This document shows, piece after piece, positions 4,001 to 22,626 of a stretch of DNA of 32,000 nt. Every line of letters begins with the position of its first letter. Positions within the stretch are counted from its first letter, which is position 1. The notes below the pieces were generated by a model that was given only the letters and a program-made list of their open reading frames with translations, did not search any database and was not told the DNA's origin. The stretch spans positions 1,800,001-1,832,000 of the forward strand of contig NZ_CP010904.1 of assembly GCF_001017655.1 (NCBI RefSeq). The letters run 5' to 3'. This DNA comes from Kiritimatiella glycovorans (GTDB lineage: Bacteria > Verrucomicrobiota > Kiritimatiellia > Kiritimatiellales > Kiritimatiellaceae). The translations under genes were made by a program, and so were the position numbers.

Positions 4001-4757
4001 TCCGCCCTTCGGGCGAAGTCCGGATGTCGACGTGCTCGATCGACACGCGCTGCATCGTCAGCGCTGTGCTGACGGCGTAGAGAAAAGCCGGGGTGTCCTG
4101 CGATACCAGGCGCAGTTCGGTGGCCCGCTCGCCCGGAGACAGCTCGATGTCGACCGGATACATCGGGGGCTGCGCGCTGCGTTTGCGGCGGCGCAGGGCG
4201 CCGGTGACCCACTCGTTCACCTGCTGGCGCACCTCGTCGGCGGCCCGGCGGCCGCCGTCCTCGAGATGACCGAACATCCATTCCATGCGCCGCCGGACCT
4301 CGCCGGCCCACAGATCGAATTCCATGAGGGAGTTTGTTTCCCCTGAAAAATGATCGAGGATACGGCGGCGGGCGGCCCGCGTCGCCCCGCCCCGTCTTTT
4401 CCTCCCGGCCGGGACGCGCCGGGGTGCTGACGATTCTTCGCTCTGGCGGCGGTAGGTGAAGACGTCGCCGGAAAGGATATCGAAATCCAGCGAGGCGAGC
4501 ACACCGGTGATCAGCGAGAACACCCCCGGGGCGTCGTACCCCGCCACCGTGCACTCGATCCGCCCGCCGCCCTCGGCCACGAGCACGTCCACCGGATGCT
4601 GCGGAGAGACGGCATGGAGCGCGCGCACGTGTTCGGCCCGGCGCGGTCCGTCGAACCGGTCGAAATACTCCGGTTCCATCCGCGCTTCAAACTCCCGGAC
4701 GAATTCCGCCGGGATGTCCGGGCAGCGCGTCTCCAGGTCTGCGGCGCTCCGTGTCAT
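1026..4757 (-). CDS. glnE: Glutamine synthetase adenylyltransferase/adenylyl-removing enzyme (two GlnE nucleotidyltransferase modules) with an N-terminal twin ACT-like extension
   Basis: 1243-aa ORF starting at the ATG at 4757. It has two nucleotidyltransferase motifs, GLGKMGGRAIGYASDIELLFLY and ALGKLGGRELNYSSDIDLLAVC, each followed by RxDLRLRPHG. The N-terminal ~300 aa contain ACT-like segments (CTVAGYDAPGVFSLITGVLASLDFDILSGDVF; LRLVSQDTPAFLYAVSTALTMQRVSIEHVDI). It is adjacent to glnA. Confidence 0.9.
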   Translation of the reverse strand: MTRSAADLETRCPDIPAEFVREFEARMEPEYFDRFDGPRRAEHVRALHAVSPQHPVDVLVAEGGGRIECTVAGYDAPGVFSLITGVLASLDFDILSGDVFTYRRQSEESSAPRRVPAGRKRRGGATRAARRRILDHFSGETNSLMEFDLWAGEVRRRMEWMFGHLEDGGRRAADEVRQQVNEWVTGALRRRKRSAQPPMYPVDIELSPGERATELRLVSQDTPAFLYAVSTALTMQRVSIEHVDIRTSPEGRIEDVLRVTDRAGRPIREDSRLNRLRLSVILTKQFTYHLDRAPDPYTALVRFEQIAENLFGGEAPGGEWAQRLSDPRSMQNLARVLGTSDYLWEDVIRLHYESLAPVLEPWKHMDGPEPGDCESRLRAAMEDAGSFEEKAERLNRFKDRELFDADLRHILHGELDVRKLSASLTPLAEAIVKLATETARDELTRRHGTPRTVGGLEVPCAVFGLGKMGGRAIGYASDIELLFLYSDRGRTDGEDPRPNAEFFNELVDLACGMIRTKREGIFEIDLRLRPHGQSGPKAVSLESFCRYYGPGGTAHAYERLALVRLRAVAGERELGAQVERLRDEFVYHAGAIDPGELRELRKKQFEQKCRPGCMNAKFSPGGLVDLEYTVQLLQVAAGVRDSNMRTPYLHRALDALRDSGELSASEHQNLAEAYRFFRALINGLRMLRGSARDLYLPEQDSPEFGHLARRMGYRSEAGLEAADRLTVDVERHSARVRHFVEVHLGREALPVPTSGTLADLILDGDSPEEVRRAILGKYRFTDPDRAFLNLQRLAGAGGRREIFFELVTLAGDVLRREPDPDRALNNWERFLDAAGGDPCEHYAMLFAQPQRLRFMLGIFSRSQFLAEGLIRSPEELEHVTSPEILYRRRDTAEMAEDVRTRLERAEEGQKGAVLYDFRFREILRIGTRDMILGVPVKDVTRDLSMLADAVIRTALEEEDRAGEDFAVFALGKLGGRELNYSSDIDLLAVCDPSRPGAESREPGEYEKILTRLRAKLGAHPGCGYVYRVDLRLRPHGRSGPVVPTRDGLLQYYRNAAALWERQSLLKLRCVAGSAALGREVEAAVRDILLEPVAEKERVFAEIEKMRGPRTSEDEDGFDIKQGRGGIRDIEFLAQGLQLVHAPDCPDLPDGNTRNALEKLAAHGLLDRNEAATLQSDYAFLRRAEHYLQILEDRQIHRLPENRDQLASFARCLLGADAAVEDLIRELNRIRHRVTESYQRHIYS

Positions 4758-8003: not shown

Positions 8004-8243
8004 GCGCCTGATCTCCGCAACGGATTTCGCATGGGTTGCACCCGATAAGCGAGCGAGAAAGGGTTCTTAACCCGTTCGGGGTGTTAATCCGAGAATCTCA
8101 GAGTTCCGCGGAGGTTGCCTTCGCAGACCGGGTGTAAATGACCCTGTTGTGCCCGGGCCGCCGGAAATGTGGTTGCGAAACAGAGAGTAACGGGACATGT
8201 CGTGAAGCGCGCAAGTGGTTCAATGACAGGCGGATACGGCAAA

Positions 8244-8268
8244 GGCCCGAGACTTATCGTCTCGGGCC
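8244..8268 (-). terminator. Strong GC-rich hairpin (10-bp perfect stem GGCCCGAGAC/GTCTCGGGCC, 5-nt loop); candidate terminator of the long minus-strand operon
   Basis: Read directly. It lies ~150 nt downstream of the sbcC-like stop. On the minus strand it is followed only by TTTG, so the U-tract is weak. Confidence 0.35.
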
Positions 8269-8418
8269 CTTGCGTTAACCTATTGTGACCGCAGCTACGC
8301 GGTGAATTTGTCTGGCTCCCCGAAAGCAACCCCTGTCGAAACCATCGCAGCGGCTACTCATATCATTATGCCAGTCAAATTCGATTGTCAAAGAGCGGGT
8401 TGCGGTTCAACGCTACGT

Positions 8419-11055
8419 TCACCGAATCGGAATCACGTTTGCTTCGCCAATATGGGCGTATCTCTCGGGTACGCAGGTAAAGATCACTATCTGGCAGTTC
8501 TTAGCCGCCTTTGCCAGGACCGCGCCCATTAAACGCAAGCGATCTGGGTCCGTGTATCCCAGTGCATCGTCCAAGACCAGTGGCATGCCGCCGTCTTTGG
8601 CCACGATAACAGAGCAGGCCAATCGAAAGATCAGGGAAAGCTGTTCCTTTGTGCCGCCGCTTAGGAATTCAAATGGCTCGGTGATTCCGCTCAGCGTTCG
8701 ACTGGCTATCTGAAGGTCTTCGCTGATCTCTACTTGGAACGTGTCGTCGAAGAGCAGACGGCCAAGATGCTCAATCCCTTCCTTTAGCGGAGCCACATAA
8801 GCCTGCCGAGCCTTGTCGCGTTCCTCCCGCATTGTTTCGAAGAGAAGCCGTGCGGCAGCGGCACGCCGATTCAGAGCCCGATTACTGGCCTCGATCCGTT
8901 CCAAGCTGGTCTGCGCCGCGTGCAGTTTTTCATGAAGGCCTTCTTCACCATGAATGCGCAGCCGCTCTTGTGCTTGCGTCAGCTCTGTTTGGGCATCATT
9001 CCTTCGATTGCGAGTCGTCTGCAAAGAACCCTCGGCCGTTTCTGCCAACGCTTTCACTCGCTCGGGGTTCTTTGCTTTGAGGGCCTCCTCTGCTGAACGA
9101 ACGCGCTTCTCCTCGCCAGCCACATCCTGGGCGGCCTTTTCAACGGCAGCGTTCAGGTCTTTGTCGGCGGCGGCCTTTCTAGCCCTGGCAAGGCTTTCTC
9201 CTTTTCGTTCCGCATCTTTCTTCAGTAAATCAATCTGAACACGAGCCTCCTGGTGTTTTGCGCTCAAGTCGTCTCGCACATTTCGCGCTGCATCCAAAGA
9301 CGTGCGAGATGATTCCGATTGCTCGTTTGCCTCTTCCAGGGCTGACTCCGCCTTCGCACGATCATCCTTGGCGGTCCCCATGTCCGGGCTGATGGCAGGT
9401 TCTTTATCACGCTTGGAAAGATATTCAGGGACGCTTTGCTCAAGGCTGCGTAGTTTCTTCGAGAGATCCTCATAGGTCAGATCAAACAGATTCTCCTTCT
9501 CGACGCGATTCTTTTCCTCGACCTGGCGGGAAGCATCCTTCTTCGCTTCCATGGCCCGCCTTGCCTGTTCGGGGTCGGCAACATCCACAGAGCGGCATGC
9601 GTCATCAAGGTTCTTCTGAGCAGCGTCGACCTTCTTGGCATGTTCCTCCAAGCTTGAGCCTGCCGTGATTTCAATGTCGAGCATATCAGGAACGGTCAGC
9701 CGCAACCTGTCGGCAACGGATAGTGTCTGGACCTCGTCTTTGTCCAAAACTGTTTCGGCTTTGTCGATGTGGAGCGTGCTCTTGCTCAGTGCGCGAAGCA
9801 AGACGCTCGGGGCACGAGTGTCCAGGTGCGCTTTGGCGGTCGCCAGGTCCAGCTCAGCCTTCTCTATTGCCTTCAGCGCCTTGGGGTCGATCTTGGCTTG
9901 CGCCAGCGTTTCTTCCGCTTTGCCCGCACTTTCCCTGGCCCGGTCGATCCTTTCCTTGCGCTCGCGGAGCTGATCGAGAAAGAGCTTGTTTGTGTAGTAT
10001 TCGTAATCCGCTCGCCGAAGGGATGCCCGCGCATCGGCCGTCTTCTTGTTCTGCTCAGATTTGTTGGCGGCTTTCTGGGCCTTCTTGAAGTTCTCCTCTG
10101 CTTGGTTCAATGCGGCAAAAGCCATCTTGCTGTTTTCCTGGAGTTCACCATGTTCCTTGGCGGCTTGGTCTGAAGCCTTGATGAGATCCTCGCGGGCATC
10201 TCTGTCACGGCGCGCCGCTTCCACAGTCTTGTTGGCGGATTCCAACTTTGCCTGAGCTGTCTCAAGGGCTGCCTCAAATCTTCCTATCTCATCAAGAGAA
10301 GCAGTATGTCCGGCAACCTCCTTCTTCAATTCTTCCTCTCTGTTCTTTAGACCCTCCAATTCATGCTGAAGCGTGTCCACACGGTCAATGTCGTGATACA
10401 GATCACCGAGTTTGCGTTCGACTTCGGCAATATCAGCTTCGATAGACTCTTGGGAGTTTCGCGCCTCCTGGAGATCTTTTTTCTCCTGACCGGTTCCGGT
10501 GTAATAACGGGCATACTCCTCACGAGCCTTTTCAAACAGATCCTCTTCTTCCGGGTCTGCGGGTTGGCCGCCTGCTGTCTTGTCAAGGGCGGCAGACAGG
10601 GATGTTTGATCCGTCAATTTCGGCTGGTCAATGGCATCGCCTTGCTGGATCGACAGTGCCTTCCACAGATTAACGTCAAGCGTTTCCTTGAGAATGGTCT
10701 CGGCACGATCATGAGCGTCCCGCCCCGTGTAGTTTTCGGGTTTCGGCTTTGTGACAACAAGTTTGGTCTCCGGTTTCTTGAGAAAGCGTTTGGAATAGGT
10801 GAATGCGTAAGGTCCGCTTTCCGCTTCGAGTTCGATCTCGGGGCCAACGTCGCGATGGACAGGAGAGATCGCCTTGACCTTCTTGTGTTTGGAATTATCC
10901 GGAAACTCAAAGAGTATCCAGGAAGCCTCGCTGAGGCTCGTTTTTCCAGCTTCATTGGGTCCCTGGGCGAGTGTGATGCCGGATGCGCCGAACGTAATCT
11001 CGGAAGCGTCAATGCCGCGATAATTGGCAATTCGAAGCCGGATGTATTTCATCAC
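8419..11055 (-). CDS. SbcC/Rad50-like (YhaN-type) AAA ATPase with a long coiled-coil insert
   Basis: 878 aa. N-terminal Walker A in IRLRIANYRGI...LAQGPNEAGKTSLSEA. About 600 aa are Glu/Lys/Ala/Arg-rich heptad-like sequence. The C-terminal ABC signature and Walker B are FLSGGTKEQLSLIFRL...GMPLVLDDALGYTDPDRL. The start is GTG at 11055 or ATG at 11052, overlapping the upstream stop (GTGTGATGA). Confidence 0.85.
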   Translation of the reverse strand: MMKYIRLRIANYRGIDASEITFGASGITLAQGPNEAGKTSLSEASWILFEFPDNSKHKKVKAISPVHRDVGPEIELEAESGPYAFTYSKRFLKKPETKLVVTKPKPENYTGRDAHDRAETILKETLDVNLWKALSIQQGDAIDQPKLTDQTSLSAALDKTAGGQPADPEEEDLFEKAREEYARYYTGTGQEKKDLQEARNSQESIEADIAEVERKLGDLYHDIDRVDTLQHELEGLKNREEELKKEVAGHTASLDEIGRFEAALETAQAKLESANKTVEAARRDRDAREDLIKASDQAAKEHGELQENSKMAFAALNQAEENFKKAQKAANKSEQNKKTADARASLRRADYEYYTNKLFLDQLRERKERIDRARESAGKAEETLAQAKIDPKALKAIEKAELDLATAKAHLDTRAPSVLLRALSKSTLHIDKAETVLDKDEVQTLSVADRLRLTVPDMLDIEITAGSSLEEHAKKVDAAQKNLDDACRSVDVADPEQARRAMEAKKDASRQVEEKNRVEKENLFDLTYEDLSKKLRSLEQSVPEYLSKRDKEPAISPDMGTAKDDRAKAESALEEANEQSESSRTSLDAARNVRDDLSAKHQEARVQIDLLKKDAERKGESLARARKAAADKDLNAAVEKAAQDVAGEEKRVRSAEEALKAKNPERVKALAETAEGSLQTTRNRRNDAQTELTQAQERLRIHGEEGLHEKLHAAQTSLERIEASNRALNRRAAAARLLFETMREERDKARQAYVAPLKEGIEHLGRLLFDDTFQVEISEDLQIASRTLSGITEPFEFLSGGTKEQLSLIFRLACSVIVAKDGGMPLVLDDALGYTDPDRLRLMGAVLAKAAKNCQIVIFTCVPERYAHIGEANVIPIR

Positions 11056-12230
11056 ACACCCCTCCCAAGCCGAAGAAGGAGCATGAGCGCGTCCCGTGCC
11101 GTGGCGCTGTCGTCGCCATCTTCCTCGATGGTGCTTCGGAGCCGTTGCACTGCCGCATCCGCGAATCCGGAAAATCCAAGGTCGGTGAAATCCGTGTCGT
11201 CAGGAATCACAATTACGTTCTCATCCCGCACATCACAAGCGCCGAACACGTCGGCAGCGGAAGCAAGGTGATCTTGAAGTAAGGCGTGCAAGGAAAGGGT
11301 AAGCGAGCCAAGCAGATTCAGACGAATGACCGATCGCTCCTTATCCGAAACGTCTTCGAGCAGTTTCCGAAGCGATTCCACATCCTCGGCAGTATTCAGT
11401 TCACGCTGATGCTCGACAAAATGCCACTGGCCAACCTGCACTTCCTTGGTGGAAATCTCCCCATCGGCAATCTCGACCAGGTTGGCAAAGCCTGAATGCA
11501 TCTCGGTGAAATCCGTGGATTCAGGTGTGCCGGAGTACCAGATATAGTCGCCGCCTACCTTTGTGAGGGAATGGCGGTCTCCAAGGGCCACAAACTGAAC
11601 CTTGCCCTCTCCGATAGCCCGCTCGAGTTCGGTTACTTTCATGACCAGAGCGGAATCTTTGTCGGGGGTGAATTGATCGACGGCCCCATGCGCAACGCAA
11701 ATACGAACAACTCCGCTTGCGGGAGTCAGAGATTCGAGAGTTCCCACGATAGGATTGGCCGACGGTCGCTTGGACATCCACGGCGCGCCGACTATTTCAA
11801 TGCCGTCACCGAGATTGAGAGTGGTGGTATCTTCGATCACGTGAACATGGGACGGTTTGCGGTCTATGAAAACGCTTGAATGGTAGACAGACGCCGCGTC
11901 CAGTGGGTCGTGGTTGCCCGGCAGGATGTAAACCGGAACAGATACGTCCTTCAGAGCCTCCAGCGTGCGGGCAACCGTTTTTCTGTCCACCTGGTTCGAC
12001 TCGAATGTGTCGCCAGCCACCACTATAAACTGGCAGTGTTCCTTCTTGGCAATGCGGCCCATGGTTCGAATCGCGTCGAAGCGCGCCTGGCTGTAGCGCT
12101 CCTGTGCCCCTTCCGAAAGGAAGTGGCGAGTCATACCCAGTTGCCAGTCACTCGTATGTAGAAATCGAGTCACGTGTGGTTTCTCCAGATCGCCGCTATC
12201 GAGAATCTCAGTGTTTGCATCCGCAGCCAT
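11052..12230 (-). CDS. SbcD/Mre11-like calcineurin-type metallophosphoesterase (YhaO-type nuclease subunit)
   Basis: 392 aa. Phosphoesterase motifs appear in order: FLHTSDWQLG (motif I, with Gln where SbcD/Mre11 has His), VVAGDTFES (II), LPGNHD (III), VAHGAV and ALGDRHS. It lies immediately upstream of, and overlaps, the Rad50-like ATPase gene. Confidence 0.85.
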   Translation of the reverse strand: MAADANTEILDSGDLEKPHVTRFLHTSDWQLGMTRHFLSEGAQERYSQARFDAIRTMGRIAKKEHCQFIVVAGDTFESNQVDRKTVARTLEALKDVSVPVYILPGNHDPLDAASVYHSSVFIDRKPSHVHVIEDTTTLNLGDGIEIVGAPWMSKRPSANPIVGTLESLTPASGVVRICVAHGAVDQFTPDKDSALVMKVTELERAIGEGKVQFVALGDRHSLTKVGGDYIWYSGTPESTDFTEMHSGFANLVEIADGEISTKEVQVGQWHFVEHQRELNTAEDVESLRKLLEDVSDKERSVIRLNLLGSLTLSLHALLQDHLASAADVFGACDVRDENVIVIPDDTDFTDLGFSGFADAAVQRLRSTIEEDGDDSATARDALMLLLRLGRGV

Positions 12231-12244
12231 ACAACATGTGTGCG

Positions 12245-12460
12245 TTATGTGCGTGCATATCTATATGTTCCCTTGATGTTCTGTGCCAAGAAGCCCCCCT
12301 TGGATGGAGCCGCCTTCATTTGCTCAAAAAGAGTACTGGGCACGTCGAAGTACTGGTAGACACTGCCGTTTTTGAACTCAACAAACAACACTTGGCTAGC
12401 TTCATCGTATCCGAAGCGGGTAATGTTTGACGATTCCGGTGATTCGGTCCAATTTGTCAT
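12245..12460 (-). CDS. KTSC domain-containing small protein
   Basis: 71 aa. SSNITRFGYDEASQVLFVEFKNGSVYQYFDVPSTLFEQMKAAPSKGGFLAQNIKGTYRY matches my memory of the stand-alone KTSC (lysyl-tRNA synthetase C-terminal-like) domain. The ATG at 12460 lies 2 nt after the herA stop, with AAGGAG inside the last herA codons. Confidence 0.75.
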   Translation of the reverse strand: MTNWTESPESSNITRFGYDEASQVLFVEFKNGSVYQYFDVPSTLFEQMKAAPSKGGFLAQNIKGTYRYART

Positions 12461-12462
12461 GG

Positions 12463-14385
12463 TTATGTCTCCTTGTCGTTTTGCGGTGGGTTAACAGTGT
12501 TGGGAGGGGCCTTCTTGTGTTCGTAATGGGGACTCTGTTTCCGCCACAGGCGAACGACTGCCCCGTAGTCTGGTACGTCACGCTTTTGATTCCAACCACC
12601 CGCACCATCAAATCCATCCAGTTGGAGACTTCCGCGCACAACCACTCGGGGGTCTTCACTATCTGGCTTCCGGTTCTTGGCGGGAGGATCAATCAATGTG
12701 CGGATTGGAAGAGAGACAGCTTCGCCCACAATGATAGCTTCACCTGTACGAAGCACTGGCAACATATCGAACAGGCCTTTGAGGCTGTCCGATGCGGCAC
12801 TGGTCACATGGCCTCGGTCTGTCTCGTTAGCCAATCGCATGGCGCAGATGGTGCCGCATTGCGACAAGATTGTGGAATCAATCTCTGATGGGCGTTGGCT
12901 AACAAGCATCAGGCCAACACCATACTTCCGTCCTTCCTTTGCAATACGCCGCACCGCCATAGAAGCTGCTTCGGAACTATCTGCGCTCAAGTATGCATGA
13001 GCTTCTTCCAGGACAACGAGGAGTGGGCGTTCTCGGCCTCCTTCGGGCAGTTTTCTTGCCCAAAAAAGAGCATCGTAAATGATCCGCAGCAATGCTCCGA
13101 CCAAGTCATTAAGTACCGCGGACGGAATACCGGAGAGGTCCAAGATCGTAATTGGGCTATCTCCACCAATCCAATCCTGTAGCAGGGCGTCGAGATCTTT
13201 TACTGTCTTTCCCTCAACGTCTGGTAGCCAATCGCCCGGGTTAAACAAGAAACCAAAACGAGGGTCGCGAAGTTTCGACGCCAAGCTGGCCAATTGCTGG
13301 CGAATTCCAATGCCCCCTGTTCCGTGTTGGACGCGTTCTTCCGCTGGCCCAGTTGTTTTTACAGTGCGGTATGCAGGAGGCGTAACAGACATGGCATCCC
13401 CAGTTTGCTCCGGTTGGCCACTCGAATCCAGGACGTAGGCTGGCTCCAGCTCACCCGCACTTCCGCCCGGCTTCGGGACAACAGTCAAGTGCTCTCGTTT
13501 ATGAAGCTCAAGCCATAATTTGTGAACGCAGAACGGCACAGGGGAATCAACGGTAACTGTCTCTTTGGTTACTCCTTCACACGGGCTTTGTGTTAATGAC
13601 TCTCTCTTAAGGAGAAGCACAGAGTCAGTAAGTGTGGCGGCCTTTTGTCCGTCAAGACCTCCAAAGCCAACCTTGATCAATTCATCGAAGCTTAATGCCC
13701 AGAAAGGGATATGCAGGGGGCGTTCGCCCTTATCCTCATCAGCAGCGGTGACACGGAACACTGTGCTGCAATCCGCGAGCGCCTTGCCGTACTCCCCGTG
13801 AATATCGAGCACAAGAATGCGCGCTGAAGGATAGCGATTCGAATCTGCGAGAGATGTAAGAAGTCCAGCGACGGTGGTCGACTTTCCTGATCCAGTTGTG
13901 CCAACTACTGCCGCATGGCGGGTGATTAGTGTGTTGATGTTGACAAGGGCGGGAATTGCCTCGGTGCTTGCCAAGTGGCCCACTGAAACAAAATCATCGG
14001 GTTCGCCTGGACCATAAATGCTACGCAGGTCTTGCTCTGTAACGAGGTGTGCGTTATCACCAATGGTTGGATATTGCGAAATGCCGCGCTTGAACTCGCC
14101 TGACCGATGACCTTCTCCGACAAGCTGAACCTTCATCCATCGATAACCGTAAGGCTCGATCTGTGCTAATGACTCGGGTACGGCACCCGCGCCGACCTGC
14201 GACACAATCCCGAAGAGGTCGGTGAAGCCGATCGACACGCGGACAAAGCTCCCGATCTGTCCGATCCGATAACCATGACCATCGATGAAGGCCAACCCAG
14301 ATACTGTGTCCTTGTCAAGCGCGATGCTGATGGTTGCGCCTTGAACGTCCTGAACCGTTCCGAGATAGGTTGGGCTATTCGGCAT
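12463..14385 (-). CDS. herA: HerA-like (DUF87 / FtsK-HerA superfamily) ATPase, partner of SIR2
   Basis: 640 aa from the ATG at 14385 (MPNSPTYLGTVQDV...). It has an N-terminal barrel-like region, Walker A VVGTTGSGKSTTVAGL and Walker B PLLVVLEEAHAYL. The start overlaps the SIR2 stop by 11 nt. The upstream extension of the track ORF (to 14505) is rejected. Confidence 0.85.
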   Translation of the reverse strand: MPNSPTYLGTVQDVQGATISIALDKDTVSGLAFIDGHGYRIGQIGSFVRVSIGFTDLFGIVSQVGAGAVPESLAQIEPYGYRWMKVQLVGEGHRSGEFKRGISQYPTIGDNAHLVTEQDLRSIYGPGEPDDFVSVGHLASTEAIPALVNINTLITRHAAVVGTTGSGKSTTVAGLLTSLADSNRYPSARILVLDIHGEYGKALADCSTVFRVTAADEDKGERPLHIPFWALSFDELIKVGFGGLDGQKAATLTDSVLLLKRESLTQSPCEGVTKETVTVDSPVPFCVHKLWLELHKREHLTVVPKPGGSAGELEPAYVLDSSGQPEQTGDAMSVTPPAYRTVKTTGPAEERVQHGTGGIGIRQQLASLASKLRDPRFGFLFNPGDWLPDVEGKTVKDLDALLQDWIGGDSPITILDLSGIPSAVLNDLVGALLRIIYDALFWARKLPEGGRERPLLVVLEEAHAYLSADSSEAASMAVRRIAKEGRKYGVGLMLVSQRPSEIDSTILSQCGTICAMRLANETDRGHVTSAASDSLKGLFDMLPVLRTGEAIIVGEAVSLPIRTLIDPPAKNRKPDSEDPRVVVRGSLQLDGFDGAGGWNQKRDVPDYGAVVRLWRKQSPHYEHKKAPPNTVNPPQNDKET

Positions 14386-15583
14386 TGGTAGCCTCCAATG
14401 ACTGGCGGCTCTGCCCGACAAGTTCTCGCAGGAACTTACCCAATTCGGCGAAGTCACCAAGCGTGAAGTGTGTGATCCGTTTGCCTTGCTCATCCGCCGG
14501 ATCAATGGGAGGCCAATCCAGGCCAGTCATGTTATTGGTAGGGACAGACTCCGAGTCTTTCTCCGGCCATTGGACTTCTTGACCGCTAACAAGTCCTCCA
14601 TCCCTTGCCAGGAGAGAGAGGTTTGGTCGCCCGAGAGCGAGATCCTTGGCCTTTTTGTACTCTTCAAGTTTGTCGTAGAGCAAAGCAAAGGCGATAGCGG
14701 TCTGAGTACTTTGCAGCCCCTGCATGATTACTTCGTTGAGATGGTCGTCTCGGAATGAGTAACCGCACAGCACGAGTGCTGAAGAAGGCTGTTTCAAGAA
14801 TGCCCTGAGCCTATCGATCATGGCCAGGTAAGGCATTCTTCTGCTCTCGTCGTACTTCAAGTGCGATGGGTGTATGACCCGGGGGAGATCTGATTTGCCC
14901 GAGGAACCCCGGAGAACTCCCTTCTCCACGTGTTGGAACCAGTTGACAGAGCCGTGCAGTTTCCATAGGCGGGCCCAGCGCGGTGGAAGTTTGTCCTCCT
15001 CCATCGCTCGTATATCAAAGAATGGACTCAAGGAACCCGCAAAGCCGTCGAAGTATGGAACGCGGCGGTCTTCAAACGCCTGTTCCATCAAGAGGTCGTA
15101 ATTGGTTGTGAATATCTCGACAGGTATTTCCCGAGGAACGGCATCCGCCCACACGGCTGTGCTGTGGTATGGCGTTTCACTGGAAGGCAGGGCTTGGTCC
15201 ACCAACTCATGGATGATCTGGCAGATATCCGCGTCGAGTTTGTCGAGGTCGTCAGCAGAGAGATCCCGAACCTTTGAGCCACCGGCAACCACACGCAGGG
15301 CGCGGATATGGCTAAGCATGTCCTCCACGGTTGTGTCATTTCGGCAATCTTCCTTGAAGTGCTTATCCAAGATGCCCAGAAGTGGTTTGGTTTCTTTGCC
15401 ATCAGACAGTCTCTTGCGGACGACTTCCGTCAATCCCGCTATGTCCGGTATCAATGCTTTCTTGCCATCTTCGATTCGCACAGACACCGGGCAGCCAGCG
15501 CCCAGAAATAAGCCCAGAGGTTTCTTGTCGCTCGATAGGCATTGCTGCAAATATCCAACTTGTTTTTGGGGGTCACTATTCAT
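14375..15583 (-). CDS. SIR2-family (SIR2_2-like) NAD-binding/NADase protein, partner of HerA
   Basis: 402 aa. Motifs: LGLFLGAGCPVS (GAGxS NAD-binding), IFTTNYDLLMEQAF (TTNYD) and LWKLHGSVNW (catalytic His region). GGAGAG lies 8 nt upstream of the ATG at 15583. Confidence 0.85.
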   Translation of the reverse strand: MNSDPQKQVGYLQQCLSSDKKPLGLFLGAGCPVSVRIEDGKKALIPDIAGLTEVVRKRLSDGKETKPLLGILDKHFKEDCRNDTTVEDMLSHIRALRVVAGGSKVRDLSADDLDKLDADICQIIHELVDQALPSSETPYHSTAVWADAVPREIPVEIFTTNYDLLMEQAFEDRRVPYFDGFAGSLSPFFDIRAMEEDKLPPRWARLWKLHGSVNWFQHVEKGVLRGSSGKSDLPRVIHPSHLKYDESRRMPYLAMIDRLRAFLKQPSSALVLCGYSFRDDHLNEVIMQGLQSTQTAIAFALLYDKLEEYKKAKDLALGRPNLSLLARDGGLVSGQEVQWPEKDSESVPTNNMTGLDWPPIDPADEQGKRITHFTLGDFAELGKFLRELVGQSRQSLEATNAE

Positions 15584-15787
15584 GACATACTCTCCGGGAT
15601 GGTAACGATCCTTGTTGAACTAGCGCCCATCATTCGATTGTGCTTTTGGTTCGTTATCGCCACCACAATCACGCACCGACTCATCGACTTCGGGCAGTTT
15701 GAACTGGAGCAGTCTCCCAACTCGGGCGCGACGCCGTTATGCGATGTTGGCACCGGGTCGTAGTTCATGTTTCGCCCTTTCTGCGTC

Positions 15788-18778
15788 TCATGCGGCGCTG
15801 TCGTCATAGGTCACACCGAAAATCGTGTCCGCCAGCCACTTCTTGAAGCCGGGGTTGTCGCTGAACTGCTTGAACAGCTCCGTGTGGTCGGACAGCATCC
15901 CGATCACCACCTTTTCCAAGGCTCGGTCGTGCTCCAGCCGCGCCGCCGATTTGCTGCTGTTCTTGATCGCGTTCAGGTATGCCTGGTCCTCTTTCACTTT
16001 GGCTGGGATGTCTTCGGTGATCACTTTGCGGATGCGGTCTGCGTCTTCCCACTCGATGTTGCCAAACCGGTCATTGAACGCTTTGATGATGTTGCTTAGC
16101 GCGTCCAATTCGGGTTCCGGCTTGCGTCCGCCGCCACTTGTCGGAACAGGGCCGATTTCGGCATCCGCATCCGGAAGCGTGAGCTGCATTGTCTGCTGCA
16201 CTTCGGCGCGGTAGCTGTCCATGTCGATGGCTTCCAGAATGCCTTTTGAAAGGTCCGGCTCAACAGGGGCTGGGAGCTTGGGAATCAGAAAATTCAGGAA
16301 GATAGACAATTTCTCCCACGCGGCGTTGGTGTATGGCAGAACCGAGGCCAGAAACTGATACGTCCGAGTGAACGTCTTGGCTTTGCCCTTGAAATCAACC
16401 TGGCCATCCTCATCAAGTTCGTCGTTGTAGACGCTCACGCATGCGTCCAGAATCGGGTCCAGCTTGTCCCGATCTTCGCCGTCGAGAAACAGCCGGACCA
16501 GTTGGTCGACCTGTTCATCGGCATACACCTGGTAACCATCCAAAGCCGCTTTGAGGTCGTGCAGCTTGTTCGGATCGGTTTCTTCGCTCAGCACCGTCGT
16601 GCGGTAGTAGTCGGAGAACGCGTCGGTGATCGTGTCCGCATCGTTCATGAAATCCAGCACGAAGGTGTCGGTCTTCTGCGGATGCGCGCGATTCAGTCGC
16701 GACAGTGTCTGCACCGCCTTGATGCCGGAAAGCACCTTGTCCACATACATTGTGTGTAGCAGCGGCTCGTCGTAGCCGGTCTGGAACTTGTCCGCAACGA
16801 TCAGAAATCGATACGGGTCTTTGCCGGGTATGCCCTTGATCTCGCCCGCTTTGATGTATTCCTCGATCTTGCCGCTCGGGAACCCGTTCATAGAGCCCTC
16901 GGTGATCTTCTTGCCATCCTGTTCGAAGTCGGAGAACGCTACGATTGCGTGGTACGGGCTCTTTCGCTCCTTGAGGTACGCCGTGACGGCGTCGTAGTAC
17001 TGGATCGCCCGCTTGATACTGCTGCAGATAATCATGGCCCGTGCCCGCCCGCCGATCTTCCGCCGAGCAATCACCTGTTCGTGAAAGTGGTCGACCATGA
17101 TCTCAGCCTTCGTCCGGATGGCGTGATCGTGCGACTCCACGTAGCGACGCAGCTTCTTCAGCGCCTTCTTTGTATCGAACTCCGGATCATCCTCGACTTC
17201 CTTGGCCAGACGACTCCAAGTGTCGACGGGGGTGTAATGCGCAAGAACATCCAGGATGAATCCTTCCTGGATCGCCTGCTTCATCGTGTAGCTATGGAAC
17301 GGCTGGTGCGGAATCTTCCCGTCCACCGGCTTGCCGGGGATGCCGAAGATCTCCAGCGTCTTGTTCTTGGGCGTGGCCGTGAATGCGAAGTAGCTGGCAT
17401 TCCCCAGCATCTTTCGCGATTCCATGATCTTGTTGACTTTGTCCTCGAAGGTCTCATCTTCTTCTTCGCCGCCCTTATCAGAAAGCGCCATGTGCATTTT
17501 CGCCGAAGTCTTCCCGCCCTGGCTGGAGTGAGCCTCGTCGATGATTATGGCAAACCGTTTCCCGCGATGCTCGTCTCCTATCTCGTCGAGGATGAACGGG
17601 AACGTCTGCACCGTGGAAATGATGATCTTCTTGCCCGCCTTCAGGAAGCTGCTGAGCTGTTGCGTCTTGCTGCCGGAGTCACCCGTTACCGCCCCGATCA
17701 CCGAGGATACTTGGGCAAACTGTTTGATCGTGTTGCGGATCTGCTTATCGAGCACGCGCCGGTCCGTGATGACCACGACGGAATCGAAAATGGCCTTGCC
17801 CCCATCCTCCAGGCCGATCAACTGATGGGCCAGCCAGGCGATGGAGTTGCTCTTGCCGCTGCCCGCCGAGTGCTGGATGAGGTACTTCTCACCCGCGCCC
17901 TTGGCGGCCGCGTCGGCCAGGAGCTTGCGGACCACGTCGAGCTGGTGATAGCGCGGGAATATCTGCTTGGGGTGTTTCTTGCGGCCGCGTTCGTCTTTCT
18001 CTTCGACGATCTCGGCGTAGTTTTCCAGCACATCTGTCAGGCCGGGCTTGGTGAGAATGCGCTTCCAGAGGTAGTCCGTCTTCAGCCCATTGGGATTGGG
18101 CGGGTTTCCGGCCCCATCATTCCAGCCCTGGTTGAAAGGCAGGAACCACGAGTCCTTGCCCTTCAGGTGCGTACACATCTGCACCTCGTGGTCGTCCACG
18201 GCAAAATGCACCACGCATCGACCGAACTTGAACAGTGGCTCGTTCGGGCTGCGATCCCGCTTGTACTGCCGCACGGCGTCATCGACCGTCTGCTTGGTCA
18301 GCGAATTCTTCAACTCGAACGTTGCTACCGGCAGACCGTTGATGAAGATGCCCATGTCCAGGGCGAGTTGAGTCTCGTCTTGGCTGTAGCGAAGCTGCCG
18401 CGTCACACTGAAGATATTGGCTGCGTGCAACTGGGCCGCCTTGGTGTTGCCCGGCGTGGGGGTCCCGTAGAACAGGTCCAAGCTCACCGGCCCATGCTTG
18501 ACGCCCTTGCGCAGCACATCGATGACGCCGCGCTTGGCTATCTCTGCGTCGAGGCGATGCAGGAACTGTGTCCGCTTTGGGCAATCCTGATCCAGCGCCA
18601 GGGTCTCGGCGGTCTCGGGCTGGGTGGCCTCCAGAAACTCGCGTAGCTTCGCCAGGTCGATTACATGCTCGCGGCCGTAGTCGGCATTGCTGCCCTGGAC
18701 GTAGCCCGCATCGTTGACGAGTGACTCGACGATCAGCGTTTCCAGCCCTTTTTCGCTAGTGTCGGTCCATGCAGTCAT
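15788..18778 (-). CDS. hsdR: Type I restriction endonuclease subunit R
   Basis: 996 aa from the ATG at 18778 (MTAWTDTSEKGLETLIVESL...). It has an N-terminal nuclease-type region (LDMGIFINGLPVATFELKN), SF2 helicase motifs (IQHSAGSGKSNSIAWLAH; FAIIIDEAHSSQ; FTATP; QTLSRLNR) and a C-terminal helical domain. The start overlaps the hsdM-S stop (ATGA). Confidence 0.9.
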   Translation of the reverse strand: MTAWTDTSEKGLETLIVESLVNDAGYVQGSNADYGREHVIDLAKLREFLEATQPETAETLALDQDCPKRTQFLHRLDAEIAKRGVIDVLRKGVKHGPVSLDLFYGTPTPGNTKAAQLHAANIFSVTRQLRYSQDETQLALDMGIFINGLPVATFELKNSLTKQTVDDAVRQYKRDRSPNEPLFKFGRCVVHFAVDDHEVQMCTHLKGKDSWFLPFNQGWNDGAGNPPNPNGLKTDYLWKRILTKPGLTDVLENYAEIVEEKDERGRKKHPKQIFPRYHQLDVVRKLLADAAAKGAGEKYLIQHSAGSGKSNSIAWLAHQLIGLEDGGKAIFDSVVVITDRRVLDKQIRNTIKQFAQVSSVIGAVTGDSGSKTQQLSSFLKAGKKIIISTVQTFPFILDEIGDEHRGKRFAIIIDEAHSSQGGKTSAKMHMALSDKGGEEEDETFEDKVNKIMESRKMLGNASYFAFTATPKNKTLEIFGIPGKPVDGKIPHQPFHSYTMKQAIQEGFILDVLAHYTPVDTWSRLAKEVEDDPEFDTKKALKKLRRYVESHDHAIRTKAEIMVDHFHEQVIARRKIGGRARAMIICSSIKRAIQYYDAVTAYLKERKSPYHAIVAFSDFEQDGKKITEGSMNGFPSGKIEEYIKAGEIKGIPGKDPYRFLIVADKFQTGYDEPLLHTMYVDKVLSGIKAVQTLSRLNRAHPQKTDTFVLDFMNDADTITDAFSDYYRTTVLSEETDPNKLHDLKAALDGYQVYADEQVDQLVRLFLDGEDRDKLDPILDACVSVYNDELDEDGQVDFKGKAKTFTRTYQFLASVLPYTNAAWEKLSIFLNFLIPKLPAPVEPDLSKGILEAIDMDSYRAEVQQTMQLTLPDADAEIGPVPTSGGGRKPEPELDALSNIIKAFNDRFGNIEWEDADRIRKVITEDIPAKVKEDQAYLNAIKNSSKSAARLEHDRALEKVVIGMLSDHTELFKQFSDNPGFKKWLADTIFGVTYDDSAA

Positions 18779-21700
18779 GACAAATTCACTCCATCCTCTG
18801 ACCGTTCCGCAACACATGGCAACTGGCCCGCTACAAGCTCATTCGCCGCGATAGCAGCCTCCTCTCGTATCGATTGGCTTAGCTGTTGATGCGTTTCTGC
18901 CAGCTGGATGAGGGATCTGATGCGATCGGCTATCTGAACCTGCTCCTCAATGGGGGGAATGGGTACCAGAATCTCTGAGAAGTCCTCGTATGTGATGTTC
19001 TTCCCTTGCCGAACTCCCGACACGGCGGTTGCAAGTTCGGCTATGAATCGCGGGGTCTTCATCAAGTATGTAAAAAACGCCTCATGAATACGGCGTTTCG
19101 GCCGCATGACAACGTAGGCTGGGCTCACGATGCCCCTACAAGCTGAGTACTCTATCCCCCCTTGGAATGAGCGGAGGCTTATAATGAAGTCCCCAGGCTG
19201 CACCAGCTTATAGCTGGATACATCGCCTCCGGGCATCACAACACTGATATCCAGCGCAGAGCGAGGCACGACCCCCTGCGACTGTGTGACCGACAATAGC
19301 TCTTCATCCGGATGGCCCTTGTCTACGACTTCCCGAAATACATGCTTGGCCTTCTCAATCTCCCAATGTGAAGGCACCCGCCCCATCCACCGCGTGCCGA
19401 TGTTGTCAATATCAGGCCCATTATCCTCCAGCGATATCGGGGTATCCTGGGTGATCGCCTGTCGCACACCCGGCAGCAGTTGCTCTCTGGTATGTGTTCT
19501 ATTATTTGCTTCAATCAGCAAGGCGTCAGTTTTAGCCGTTAGGCTATCGATGTCCTGAATGCGCGGGGGCTTAAAGAAGATCTTGTTGAATGGAATGCGA
19601 TATCCCAAGACACGTGGGACTGAGAGCCACGCATCCGATGCATGGGGTAGAATCTCGTTCTGATAGAATGCCGGTTCGCCGCCTTGGTACATCAGCGGGA
19701 TTCTCTCATGCTGCCTGAGTTCGGAATCCGGCTCGTACTCAACAACCATTGGGTTGCCGTCGCTCTCGATCTCATAGAGGCCGTAGAGCGGATCGATTTC
19801 GGCCTTGCCGGGCTTGTGGACCTTCTTGATGACCGGAGGTGCATCCTCAACCCGCCAACTCACGCTATTCAGGATGATCTTCTGCTCACCGGCGGACAGC
19901 TTGATGCCAAGATTCTTCAGCGCATCACTGACGGCATTGCGGAAGATGTTGTGATCGGTGAAGACATTCTCACCGAGTTCGTCCCGCAGGGCACGGGCGG
20001 CGTCATAGAGTTTTTTGTCCCGCTTCCAGGTGTCGGCCTTGAGCAGCTTCTTGCGTTTCTTCTCCGGGATGGCCGTTCGCTTGGGCGCATCGCTGTCTTC
20101 ATCTCCGTCGGAGTCCTCGTCCCCGTTGCCGCCCCAATCGCGGAGGGTCTGCTCGACCTGCTTGCGCACGGACGAGAAGTTCTCGAAGAGCGCATCGCCG
20201 TATTCTTCGTGCAGGGCCTGGCGGATGTCCTCGTCGCCTGAAGCGTATCGCAGGCCCTGGATTGCCTTGCGGGTCAACTGGCTGTGCAGACGAAGTGGGC
20301 GTTCGACGCGAATCTTCCAGTAGCCGAACGCGGCATTGGGGAAGATCTTCGACTGCTCGGTTTCCTCGAAGGCGAGGAATATCTCACAGATCTGCTTAAT
20401 CTGCTGGTCGGAAAACTCGCAGTTCTTCGCTCCCAGACTCTTGCGGAGGGGCTGGTGTATTTCTGTCGCGTCGATGAGTTGAATCCTACCCTTGCGGTGC
20501 ATCGGCTTCGTGTTCGTGAGCACCCAAATAAACGTCTCCATCTGGGTGTTGTAGAACATGTTGTTTGGCAGCGCGATGATCGCCTCCAGCCAGTCGTTCT
20601 CGATAATCCAGCGGCGGATGTTGGACTCGCCTTGGCCTGCGTCGCCGGTGAACAGGGACGATCCGTTGTGGACCTCTGCAATGCGGCTACCGAGGGGGCT
20701 GCGGTCAGTGGGCTCGACCATTTTCGTTAGCTTATTAACGAGGAACAGGAGCTGGCCATCGCTTGAACGGGTGATGAGGGATAGCTCGTCGCCGTCGTGC
20801 TGGACTACAAAACGGTGATCGGACATGTCCTTCTTGCCGCCCATGCGGTCGAGGTCGGTCTTCCAGCTCTTGCCGTACGGCGGATTGGAGAGCATGAAGT
20901 CGAACTCGCCGGAGGGGAAGGCGTCGCGGGAGAGCGTCGAGCCGAACTTCATGTTCTCCGCGCCCTGGCCTTCGCCCTTGAGCAGCAGGTCGGCCTTGCT
21001 GATGGCGTAGGTTTCGGGGTTGACCTCCTGGCCGAACAGGTGGATGGAGACGTCCTTGCCGCGACTGTTGGCGAGGTCGCGGAGGGTATCCTCGGCGACA
21101 GTCAGCATGCCGCCGGTGCCGCACGCGCCGTCATAGACGCGATACGTGGCGGATTGGATGTCATCGGCGATGGGCCAGAAGATCAGGTTGGCCATTAGCT
21201 TGACGACGTCGCGGGGTGTGAAGTGCTCGCCCGCCTCCTCGTTGTTCTCCTCGTTGAAGCGGCGGATCAGCTCCTCGAAGATCGTGCCCATGGCGTGGTT
21301 GTCCAGGCCGGGCAGGCGGACGGTGCCCTCGGCGTCGCGGACCGGGTGCGGGCTGAGGTTGATGTCGGGGTTAAGGAATTTCTCGATGAGCGGACCAAGC
21401 GCATCCGCGTCAACCAGCGTGGGAATCTGGTTGCGGAACTTGAATTTGTCGAGTATCTCCTGAACGTTCGGGCTGAAGCCATCGAGGTAGGCTTCAAAGT
21501 CGGCCTTGAGCTGTTGCTGCTTGGCGCGGGCCTGGAGGTCGCGAAGCGTGAACGGCGAGTCGTTATAGAAGGCGTGGTTGGCGTCGGGACCGGCGGCTTT
21601 CGACAAAGCGCCGACCTTGTTGGCGACGCCCGCCTTGTCGAGCTGTTCGCTCATCTTCAGGACGTCCTGCTTAGTGGACTCCAGGCAGGCGTCAAGACGG

Positions 21701-21822
21701 CGGATGACCGTCATGGGCAGGATCACGTCGCGATACTTACCGCGCACGTAGACGTCGCGGAGCACGTCATCCGCAATGCCCCAGATGAAATTAGCAATCC
21801 AATTCAGTTGCCCGTTTTCCAT
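18775..21822 (-). CDS. hsdM: Type I RM N6-adenine DNA methyltransferase (HsdM) fused to a single-TRD half specificity subunit (HsdS)
   Basis: 1015 aa from the ATG at 21822 (AAGGAG upstream). HsdM_N-like MENGQLNWIANFIWGIADDVLR. SAM motif VYDGACGTGGML and catalytic FDFMLSNPPYG. An acidic linker GNGDEDSDGDEDSD follows. The last ~230 aa look like one target-recognition domain (PSHWEIEKAKHVF...GDFIISLRSFQGG...) plus one conserved HsdS helix (LVPIPPIEEQVQIADRIRSLIQ). No separate hsdS gene is present. Confidence 0.85.
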   Translation of the reverse strand: MENGQLNWIANFIWGIADDVLRDVYVRGKYRDVILPMTVIRRLDACLESTKQDVLKMSEQLDKAGVANKVGALSKAAGPDANHAFYNDSPFTLRDLQARAKQQQLKADFEAYLDGFSPNVQEILDKFKFRNQIPTLVDADALGPLIEKFLNPDINLSPHPVRDAEGTVRLPGLDNHAMGTIFEELIRRFNEENNEEAGEHFTPRDVVKLMANLIFWPIADDIQSATYRVYDGACGTGGMLTVAEDTLRDLANSRGKDVSIHLFGQEVNPETYAISKADLLLKGEGQGAENMKFGSTLSRDAFPSGEFDFMLSNPPYGKSWKTDLDRMGGKKDMSDHRFVVQHDGDELSLITRSSDGQLLFLVNKLTKMVEPTDRSPLGSRIAEVHNGSSLFTGDAGQGESNIRRWIIENDWLEAIIALPNNMFYNTQMETFIWVLTNTKPMHRKGRIQLIDATEIHQPLRKSLGAKNCEFSDQQIKQICEIFLAFEETEQSKIFPNAAFGYWKIRVERPLRLHSQLTRKAIQGLRYASGDEDIRQALHEEYGDALFENFSSVRKQVEQTLRDWGGNGDEDSDGDEDSDAPKRTAIPEKKRKKLLKADTWKRDKKLYDAARALRDELGENVFTDHNIFRNAVSDALKNLGIKLSAGEQKIILNSVSWRVEDAPPVIKKVHKPGKAEIDPLYGLYEIESDGNPMVVEYEPDSELRQHERIPLMYQGGEPAFYQNEILPHASDAWLSVPRVLGYRIPFNKIFFKPPRIQDIDSLTAKTDALLIEANNRTHTREQLLPGVRQAITQDTPISLEDNGPDIDNIGTRWMGRVPSHWEIEKAKHVFREVVDKGHPDEELLSVTQSQGVVPRSALDISVVMPGGDVSSYKLVQPGDFIISLRSFQGGIEYSACRGIVSPAYVVMRPKRRIHEAFFTYLMKTPRFIAELATAVSGVRQGKNITYEDFSEILVPIPPIEEQVQIADRIRSLIQLAETHQQLSQSIREEAAIAANELVAGQLPCVAERSEDGVNLS

Positions 21823-21830
21823 GGCCTTTT

Positions 21831-22061
21831 TTACTCCTTGCGCATCTTGTCGGCATTCCCGGGTTCGGCGTCTCCGCCTGAACTCTCCCCGCCCCCTCGC
21901 CGGACCCACTCATCCACCTCCGACAGCTTGAAACGAAGCAGCCTGCCGACACGCTGCGCGGGCAGGCCCTCTTTTTCGACCCATCTATATATTGAGGGTT
22001 TCTGAACGCCCAGATGGGCGGCCACCTGATCTGCGTCGACCCACGCTTCCTGATTTGTCAT
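21831..22061 (-). CDS. Excisionase/AlpA/MerR-type helix-turn-helix DNA-binding protein (HTH_17-like)
   Basis: 76 aa. WVDADQVAAHLGVQKPSIYRWVEKEGLPAQRVGRLLRFKLSEVDEWV is the typical excisionase-family HTH. AGGAG lies upstream of the ATG at 22061. The stop is 8 nt before the hsdM-S start. Confidence 0.7.
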   Translation of the reverse strand: MTNQEAWVDADQVAAHLGVQKPSIYRWVEKEGLPAQRVGRLLRFKLSEVDEWVRRGGGESSGGDAEPGNADKMRKE

Positions 22062-22212: not shown

Positions 22213-22249
22213 GAGTCGCTGACCAGGCACAGACTAATTGGAGTATGAG

Positions 22250-22612
22250 ATGACCGACAATTTGGCATTCGGAAAACGGATAAGGGAGCTGCGGGAGGAG
22301 AAGCTCAAGACGGACCCGAAATTTACGCTCCGGAAATTCGCGGAGGCGGTCGGGATAAGCCCCACGTTTTTGAGCAAGGCCGAGCGCGGCGAATTCAAAC
22401 CGCCCAAGGCGGAGAACATCATGAAGATGGCCCAGTTGCTGGACGTGGACCCGGACGAACTGCTGTCGCTGGCGAACAAGGTCGATCCGGAACTCGAGAA
22501 GATCATCAAAGAACGGCCGAAGGCCTTGCCCGATCTGCTCCGCACCGTGCGGGGCATGTCGGAAGAGGAGCTTCGCAAGCTCACGGACCGGGCACGCAAA
22601 CAAAAGGACTGA
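22250..22612 (+). CDS. XRE family helix-turn-helix transcriptional regulator
   Basis: MTDNLAFGKRIRELREEKLKTDPKFTLRKFAEAVGISPTFLSKAERGEFKPPKAENIMKMAQLLDVDPDELL is a typical HTH_3 domain. The ATG at 22250 has GGAG 6 nt upstream. The track ORF begins at an in-frame TTG at 22238. Confidence 0.85.
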   Translation: MTDNLAFGKRIRELREEKLKTDPKFTLRKFAEAVGISPTFLSKAERGEFKPPKAENIMKMAQLLDVDPDELLSLANKVDPELEKIIKERPKALPDLLRTVRGMSEEELRKLTDRARKQKD

Positions 22613-22626
22613 CACGCGGGGCGACC

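Follow-up and report, generated by a model that had tools for sequence, protein, structure and literature searches.

Five minus-strand genes, encoding SIR2, HerA, a KTSC-domain protein, an SbcD-like nuclease and an SbcC-like ATPase, run from 15583 to 8419 in a stretch of 32,000 nucleotides (nt) of the Kiritimatiella glycovorans chromosome (NZ_CP010904.1, positions 1,800,001 to 1,832,000), here called the window. These genes most probably constitute two separate modules lying end to end in a defence island. One is a SIR2-HerA system with a split KTSC gene and the other is an independent Mre11/Rad50-like pair, so that the two would be co-transcribed neighbours and not obligate partners. A first reading made from the DNA letters (the sequence-only reading) had proposed that all five genes form one extended defence system. 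The five gene identities that it gave were all confirmed by the open reading frames (ORFs) and their domain matches, and the block is laid out as follows.

14375..15583, minus strand: SIR2 NADase effector of the Paenibacillus type (PADLOC SIR2 PDLC04094, 1.7e-138; PDB 8w9l, 3.8e-104)
12463..14385, minus strand: HerA hexameric ATPase/translocase (PADLOC HerA PDLC04105, 5e-160; Pfam DUF87 and HerA_C)
12245..12460, minus strand: KTSC-domain protein of 71 amino acids (aa) (Pfam KTSC, 4.7e-24)
12174..12244, minus strand: inter-module spacer of 71 nt, with a GGAGAA Shine-Dalgarno sequence and a conserved SbcD/SbcC-cassette leader of about 25 nt at its 3' end
11052..12173 (longest ORF to 12230), minus strand: SbcD/Mre11-like metallophosphoesterase, the nuclease subunit (Pfam Metallophos, 2.3e-10; TIGR00619 sbcd, 2.3e-14, below cutoff)
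8419..11052 (or 11055 with a GTG start), minus strand: SbcC/Rad50-like ABC ATPase (Pfam AAA_15, 9e-10; PDB Rad50, 4e-7, in the C-terminal half)
8244..8269, minus strand: strong hairpin that probably terminates the gene array (-32 kcal/mol, z = -7.9 against shuffles)

The linkage of the two modules was counted in two sets of related loci. The SbcD-anchored set, with one genome per species, comprised at least 588 loci, and the analysis used the best 80. A metagenome scan with the window HerA yielded the HerA-anchored set of 80 loci at 43-91% identity. Among the 59 SbcD-anchored loci with at least 3.6 kilobases (kb) of upstream sequence, SIR2-HerA-KTSC lies upstream of the pair in two, one from Desulfobacterales (L006) and one from Fuerstiella (L028). 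In the HerA-anchored set, the pair follows KTSC in 3 of 61 loci (L110, L111, and L140) and precedes SIR2, in reversed order, in 1 of 39 (L097). More than 93% of the loci of either module lack the other module. The sequence-only reading had seen a single DNA-end machine here, a reunion of HerA with Mre11 and Rad50 in which SIR2 takes the place of NurA, and the low linkage (2/59, 3/61, and 1/39) does not support this as a conserved system. Immediately downstream of SIR2-HerA, where that reading had suggested counting co-occurrence, it is KTSC that is constant: its ORF comes directly after herA in every one of the 78 loci with sequence beyond that gene. As a rule each module occurs without the other, which speaks against five-gene unity, though the same gene order in L140, L006, L110/L111, and L028 means that the arrangement is not unique to the window genome.

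The edges of the modules are sharp. The SbcD/SbcC cassettes of L004 and L110 share 98.5% nucleotide identity over 3704 nt, with homology starting 12 nt before the SbcD start, and upstream of this shared cassette stands an AAA_13 gene in L004 and SIR2-HerA-KTSC in L110. Conversely, relatives that carry SIR2-HerA-KTSC without the pair match L110 over 8806-12064, from about 15 nt into SIR2 to a few nt from the KTSC stop. In the window, homology to other copies of the cassette runs from 8419 to 12164-12195 (12172-12174 in many copies), and homology to other SIR2-HerA-KTSC loci covers 12252-15574. Locus L003 carries an hsdR gene that is 76% nucleotide-identical to the window hsdR and then the pair, with no SIR2-HerA-KTSC between them. 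In neighbour-joining trees of SbcD and of HerA, the five-gene loci are polyphyletic and occupy three or four separate places among loci without the arrangement. Given these boundary breakpoints and scattered tree positions, the juxtaposition appears to have arisen repeatedly and to be neither ancestral nor obligatory. The pair thus looks like an autonomous cassette, and the two modules seem to have separate evolutionary histories. Because each module is usually found alone and has sharp edges, a single five-gene machine is not supported, and the interpretation offered by the sequence-only reading holds only in part. The tempting extended five-gene system is better described as two cassettes, and tight packing in defence islands is no evidence of a single machine.

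The packing itself is as tight as first described. All five genes are co-oriented, with overlapping or near-touching junctions. The SIR2 TAG (14377-14375) and the herA ATG (14385) give an 11-nt overlap, and the KTSC ATG (12460) lies 2 nt past the herA TAA (12465-12463), with its ribosome-binding site AAGGAGA within herA. The sbcD-like TGA (11054-11052) overlaps the sbcC-like start, which is either ATG 11052 (1-nt overlap) or GTG 11055 and is preceded on its 5' side by the ribosome-binding site GGGAGGGG. The nuclease gene is translationally coupled to the ATPase gene. The hairpin described after the block was also found at 8244-8269, as GGGCCCGAGAC-GAUAA-GUCUCGGGCC. One junction needs revision. 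The sequence-only reading gave a gap of 14 nt between KTSC and sbcD, and ATG 12230, which opens the longest SbcD-like ORF, does exist 14 nt past the KTSC stop. However, most of 20 aligned SbcD-like homologs begin at the equivalent of V20, that is, at GTG 12173. This codon has its own Shine-Dalgarno sequence, GGAGAA, and across many loci a GGAG-type site lies 6-8 nt before the equivalent GTG or ATG. On the strength of the homolog starts and the Shine-Dalgarno sequence, ATG 12230 was dropped in favour of GTG 12173 as the most likely start, so the spacer is most likely 71 nt and not 14 nt, still short. In a simple consensus scan, nothing resembling a promoter or a terminator turned up on the minus strand within the block, and the counts were not informatively above those of shuffles. 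Since no internal signal was found, co-transcription of the five genes in the window is plausible.

The first module (15583-12245) is, as judged by homology, a split-gene variant of the characterised two-gene SIR2-HerA anti-phage system. In an alignment to 8w9l, the window SIR2 keeps the TNYD and LHGS motifs, with the catalytic N/D/H residues intact. The window HerA matches the HerA of Paenibacillus sp. 453MF (PDB 8wiv) with an E-value of 6e-214, residues 3-602 being aligned to 9-588, and it is without the distal C-terminal KTSC domain that some relatives have fused. Such in-frame fusions occur in L082, L134, and L142, where the proteins have 708-711 aa (640 + 71); KTSC is a separate gene in the window and in 75 of the 78 related metagenomic loci. 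Among PDB sequences, the 71-aa KTSC protein is matched best by residues 631-695 of the 696-aa Paenibacillus HerA (8wiv; E 1.8e-12). These residues fall within the 'C-terminal arm domain' (aa 576-696), which wraps the neighbouring RecA-like domain and stabilises the split-spiral hexamer (PMC11472057). The authors of that study do not name this domain KTSC. The KTSC-like module of the HerA arm is thus present in the window, but is split off as its own gene. The invariable adjacency to herA, the three fusions and the match to HerA 631-695 indicate that KTSC belongs to SIR2-HerA, presumably as a detached piece of HerA. The earlier assignment of KTSC to an extended system was right in treating it as a functional part of the locus, but the part is one of HerA. 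KTSC is a separate, obligatory small protein in most relatives of the solved HerA, which bears on the assembly and regulation of the split-spiral hexamer, and two-gene constructs from such loci would miss a component.

The solved Paenibacillus system provides phage protection with depletion of nicotinamide adenine dinucleotide (NAD+) and has a preference for 3'-overhang and forked DNA (PMC11472057). By homology, the HerA hexamer of the first module would be bound to a SIR2 ring, and upon infection NAD+ would be depleted and DNA unwound or cleaved. The free KTSC protein probably re-associates with HerA, where it may stabilise the hexamer arm or bind DNA. The window copy of the module is a mosaic. 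SIR2 and the 5' part of herA (13789-15574) resemble the subclade of L107-L117, L028, and L110, and the remainder of herA with KTSC (compared over 12252-14374) resembles another subclade, L081-L105. The two comparisons overlap within herA at 13789-14374. This mosaic similarity suggests recombination inside herA that kept the interface of SIR2 and the HerA N-terminus together; in the solved Paenibacillus complex the N-terminal beta-barrel of HerA contacts SIR2.

Elsewhere, the SIR2-HerA-KTSC module often sits in a larger operon, as in the metagenome loci L085 (2694-15856), L108, L095, L090, L093, L082, and L098. Its order is a DrmD-like SNF2 helicase, DUF2130, SIR2, HerA, KTSC, a type III methyltransferase, sometimes RhuM, and a type III restriction endonuclease; the last matches the PADLOC model PDLC03648, as does the gene that abuts the SbcD/SbcC pair in L001. 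The DUF2130 protein (about 433 aa; for example, L085 5677-6978), for which PADLOC has no model, is present in 18 of the 80 HerA-anchored loci, mostly directly upstream of SIR2 and, in L133 and L135, downstream of KTSC. The loci that have it are scattered through several HerA subclades, and it is a far commoner neighbour than the SbcD/SbcC pair. A protein of about 344 aa without Pfam or PADLOC match begins within a few nt after KTSC in 18 loci among L129-L158 (for example, L147 6497-7531). Its distribution is clade-specific, covering two HerA subclades, and it may be a genuine fourth component of those systems.

In the second module (12173-8419), the proteins have only marginal sequence similarity to SbcD and Rad50 (E 1e-6 to 1e-7), and their assignment draws on fold and motifs. 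The AlphaFold2 model of the SbcD-like protein (predicted local distance difference test score, 68.8) was compared with the PDB by Foldseek: the top 50 matches are all Mre11 or SbcD, with a best E-value of 6e-14, and they include both the nuclease domain and the capping domain. The protein has phosphoesterase motifs II-IV, with GD and GNHD kept. The profile alignment shows two substitutions at the metal site, both invariant in 20 diverse homologs: motif I is DWQ for DxH (HTSDWHLG of E. coli SbcD becomes HTSDWQLG), and motif V is GDRH for GHxH (ALGHIH becomes ALGDRH). The substituted Gln and Asp residues could still bind metal. The SbcC-like protein has a Walker A motif at residues 31-39, LSGG at 797-800, and Walker B/D-loop at 824-835. 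The region of about 570 residues between the two halves of the ATPase head is poorly conserved and would form a long coiled coil. Cysteines occur only at 486, 813, 853, and 860, and an alignment of 63 sequences shows no conserved CxxC of a zinc hook. Matches to Rad50 and SMC-related NCBIfam models were obtained for this protein, and neither member of the pair reaches an NCBIfam cutoff. Running PADLOC on the locus, as the sequence-only reading had suggested, matched SIR2 and HerA; the SbcD-like protein has no match in PADLOC 2.0 and no anti-phage model in PADLOC 2.0 or NCBIfam 2026, and the sole match of the SbcC-like protein is a weak one to AriA (6.6e-12) over the generic ATPase N-terminus. 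Taken by sequence and predicted fold, the pair is a putative zinc-hook-less Mre11/Rad50 paralog with altered metal ligands. Its fold and context suggest that it would most likely act alone, as an ATP-gated nuclease that attacks the ends or hairpins of invading DNA.

The family is widespread. More than 4000 SbcD-like homologs, mostly 65-70% identical, were found across unrelated phyla, and about 130 alignment columns are invariant among 20 diverse sequences. The SbcC gene directly follows SbcD in 74 of the 75 loci with enough sequence (tblastn), usually with a 4-nt overlap, and in the 75th (L052) it was detected by phmmer. The clade of the window copy shows 57-87% identity across Kiritimatiellota, Planctomycetota, Desulfobacterota, Chloroflexota, Acidobacteriota, Bacteroidota, Nitrospirota, and a metagenome-assembled genome of Bathyarchaeota (L036). 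Such unusually high identity across phyla indicates that the family spread horizontally, widely and recently, while strongly constrained. Carriage by phages or plasmids was considered and rejected: there were no matches among the 2.9 million viral contigs of IMG/VR and a single weak one in INPHARED, so that the pair is essentially absent from those phages, and plasmids have only distant relatives at 39% identity or less. Five loci (L004, L008, L017, L023, and L036) first resembled an 'SbcD-only' variant with four small convergent genes. This variant was rejected; SbcC runs off the contig end in these loci, and the small ORFs are antisense ORFs within its middle region.

Most neighbours of the pair are defence genes, of heterogeneous kinds, with type I, III, and IV restriction, Gabija, Wadjet, and PDC-S06 among them. 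A type III restriction endonuclease adjoins it in L001, L007, L021, and L023; HsdR in L003, GmrSD in L026, DUF499 in L013, a YhcG nuclease in L040, and JetD in L051; AAA_13/PDC-S06 in five loci; and GajA/GajB of Gabija in L026, L029, and L034. A type IIG enzyme also occurs. Clusters c17/c18 of L026, L029, and L034 had been considered as a second HerA-type system beside the pair, and PADLOC identified them as GajA/GajB of Gabija. About a dozen loci have an upstream gene that overlaps the SbcD start or ends no more than 35 nt away from it. In more than 15 others that gene is divergently oriented, so the pair can also be a free-standing unit. The pair seems to dock habitually behind other defence operons, at their 3' ends, and to bring no promoter with it. 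Neighbourhood and mobility together suggest a defence role. The pair is a broadly distributed, highly conserved and mobile Mre11/Rad50 paralog resident in defence islands, and it is a family for which PADLOC 2.0 and NCBIfam hold no anti-phage model.

Several observations weigh against two wholly independent modules. They have met at least three times: in the window and L140, in L006/L110/L111 together with L028, and, reversed, in L097. Wherever joined, they share one orientation and lie directly side by side, and no locus has them apart within the 10-kb flanks. This adjacency seems to exceed what pure chance placement predicts, and the neighbour-joining trees that scatter the five-gene loci carry no support values. 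A juxtaposition so repeated and so uniform leaves room for facultative synergy. It could take the form of a five-gene supersystem, the idea of the sequence-only reading confined to a minority of loci, in which the pair senses or processes phage DNA ends and hands 3'-overhang or forked DNA to SIR2-HerA-KTSC, coupling DNA ends to NAD+ depletion. The tight junctions, the lack of internal promoter or terminator signals and the single terminal hairpin agree with it, as do the recurrence of the arrangement in at least three lineages and three phyla and the DNA preference of the Paenibacillus system (PMC11472057), since an Mre11/Rad50-type enzyme could make such substrates. We nevertheless consider this supersystem improbable. 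The modules are far more often apart than together, and the pair docks just as tightly behind genes for type III restriction endonucleases, GmrSD, DUF499, and YhcG. Gabija adjoins it as often as SIR2-HerA does, near-identical copies of the cassette exist with and without SIR2-HerA, and the prototype SIR2-HerA defends with two genes. The gene order of the window alone would also be compatible with KTSC being the first gene of the downstream module (KTSC-SbcD-SbcC) and no part of SIR2-HerA, a view that the comparative data refute almost beyond doubt. KTSC follows HerA invariably and the pair follows KTSC only rarely (3/61), KTSC occurs in only 3 of the 80 SbcD-anchored loci (two with SIR2-HerA, and in the third, L024, downstream on the opposite strand), HerA-KTSC fusions exist, and the nucleotide homology of the cassette begins past the KTSC stop. 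Two adjoining modules, with KTSC in the first, remain the preferred reading.

The second of these modules is a candidate defence system by its neighbourhood. It may instead be no defence system at all, but an SbcCD/SbcEF-type repair or recombination paralog that hitch-hikes in islands, for example in island maintenance or in the repair of self-damage by neighbouring restriction systems. PGAP labels the homologs 'DNA repair exonuclease / exonuclease SbcCD subunit D' and 'AAA family ATPase', the SbcD-like protein is absent from the PADLOC and NCBIfam anti-phage models, and the architecture is that of Bacillus subtilis SbcF/SbcE, with the nuclease gene first, no CxxC, and a function in double-strand-break repair (PMC2811018). 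Members of a divergent branch (43-49% identity; Actinomycetota, Chloroflexota, and Myxococcota) have metabolic genes around them, for example those for acyl-CoA ligase, alanine dehydrogenase, ZnuA, and amidase, a setting that agrees with a repair function. On the other side, the clade of the window copy keeps 57-87% identity between unrelated phyla, one archaeon included, a sign of recent horizontal transfer, and stands overwhelmingly beside restriction, Gabija, and PDC-S06 genes, which is typical of defence and not of housekeeping repair. A repair role is therefore a doubtful explanation for this clade. More speculatively, and we put it forward as a tentative proposal, the pair may be an undescribed, widespread stand-alone system against mobile elements: a hook-less Mre11/Rad50 whose metal site has been remodelled, recruited from a repair paralog of actinobacterial type and spread as a cassette that lacks a promoter and joins the 3' ends of restriction-modification, GmrSD, Gabija, and SIR2-HerA-KTSC operons. 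Where it follows SIR2-HerA-KTSC, it may also feed processed ends to HerA.

The block belongs to a longer array of systems in the window. The GC content is 65-69% over glnE (1026-4757) and 53-60% between about 5.5 and 28 kb. A large serine recombinase gene (29513-31954) and an IS3-type transposase gene (26220-27116) are present. With its low GC content, these mobile-element genes and its defence genes, the stretch is a horizontally acquired defence island. An NCBI protein of K. glycovorans matches the window SbcD-like protein at 100%. The other features of the array are listed here.

18775..21909, minus strand: type I restriction-modification methylase/specificity fusion HsdM-HsdS, head of the minus-strand defence gene array (Pfam N6_Mtase, 1e-49; HsdM_N, 8.5e-22; Methylase_S)
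15788..18817, minus strand: HsdR, type I restriction subunit, directly 5' of SIR2 (Pfam HSDR_N, ResIII, and T1R_D3; TIGR00348 hsdR, 6e-63)
15584..15787, minus strand: hsdR-SIR2 spacer of 204 nt, a possible promoter region and a degenerate remnant of the small gene that follows hsdR in L003
6428..7944, minus strand: AbiEi/AbiEii abortive-infection toxin-antitoxin pair (PADLOC AbiEi, 3.4e-80; AbiEii, 1e-105)

The minus-strand systems would follow one another head to tail, each self-contained: type I restriction-modification (HsdMS and HsdR), SIR2-HerA-KTSC, the SbcD/SbcC-like pair, and AbiE. The AbiEi/AbiEii pair is the next separate system of the island, right after the terminator hairpin. Its longest AbiEii ORF has 469 aa with a TTG start and overlaps AbiEi; because AbiEii homology begins only near residue 167, the true start is probably near 7345. 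A promoter-like TTGACA-18-TAAAAT lies by this pair at 7983-7954. Three ORFs of 310-391 aa without Pfam domain (22234-23355, minus strand; 23409-24584 and 24574-25506, plus strand) sit between the type I restriction-modification genes and the IS3 transposase. Two small ORFs, of 75 aa (15580-15807) and 81 aa (8084-8329), were considered as extra components of the block and rejected; neither has a homolog in the 160 related loci, and they are probably not genes. The hsdR-SIR2 spacer partly resembles the beginning of a small ORF which, in L003, overlaps the stop codon of hsdR. When the L003 hsdR-to-sbcD spacer (9622-9996) was compared with the two window spacers as a possible precise insertion, only partial similarity just past the hsdR stop was found. 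In L013 the pair is preceded by a DUF499 gene, and the 3' part of the L003 spacer is similar to the end of that gene, which encodes the C-terminus. The L003 spacer thus looks like a patchwork of gene remnants, and island junctions seem to carry remnants of former neighbours.

No five-gene system of this composition was found in PADLOC 2.0, NCBIfam 2026, or a literature search, as the sequence-only reading had supposed, and the literature search gave no description of the block or of the pair as a defence system. The closest relative of the first module is the SIR2-HerA of Paenibacillus sp. 453MF (PDB 8wiv, 8wld, and 8w9l; PMC11472057). The two agree in gene order, in the overlap of the genes, in the catalytic SIR2 residues, in sequence (SIR2, E 4e-104, beside the HerA match given above), and in the correspondence of KTSC to HerA 631-695. 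They differ in that the window KTSC is its own 71-aa product and not the HerA C-terminus, and in the mosaic origin of the window copy. The second module shares with SbcCD/Mre11-Rad50 of E. coli and archaea the Mre11 fold with capping domain, motifs II-IV, the Rad50-type Walker A, signature, and Walker B motifs, and a nuclease gene that comes first with its stop overlapping the ATPase start. Unlike them, it has no CxxC zinc hook, carries Gln for the motif I His and Asp for the first motif V His, is only marginally similar in sequence, and belongs to a mobile family of defence islands. B. subtilis SbcF/SbcE (YhaO/YhaN), a hook-less SbcCD paralog, is as described (PMC2811018) alike in having a nuclease followed by an SMC-like ATPase, no CxxC, and similar sizes. 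SbcE has a conserved hydrophobic central domain (PMC2811018). Unlike the window pair, SbcEF is a chromosomal repair and competence factor and not an island gene.

An ABC/SMC-type ATPase together with a nuclease in defence islands also recalls Lamassu LmuB, Wadjet JetC, Gabija GajA, and PARIS AriA. However, PADLOC gives the SbcC-like protein no significant match to LmuB, JetC, or GajA and only the weak one to AriA, and the PADLOC models of the SMC/ABC-ATPase systems (Lamassu, Wadjet, Gabija, PARIS, and Septu) do not recognise the pair. The archaeal herA-mre11-rad50-nurA operon likewise combines a HerA-family ATPase with Mre11-like and Rad50-like genes in one co-oriented block. In contrast to that operon, the linkage in the window is not a conserved one (2/59 and 3/61), NurA is missing, and the HerA is of the anti-phage SIR2-HerA clade. 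Set beside these systems, what is new is a split-KTSC variant of SIR2-HerA and an uncharacterised candidate defence cassette of a known enzyme class, a modest novelty.

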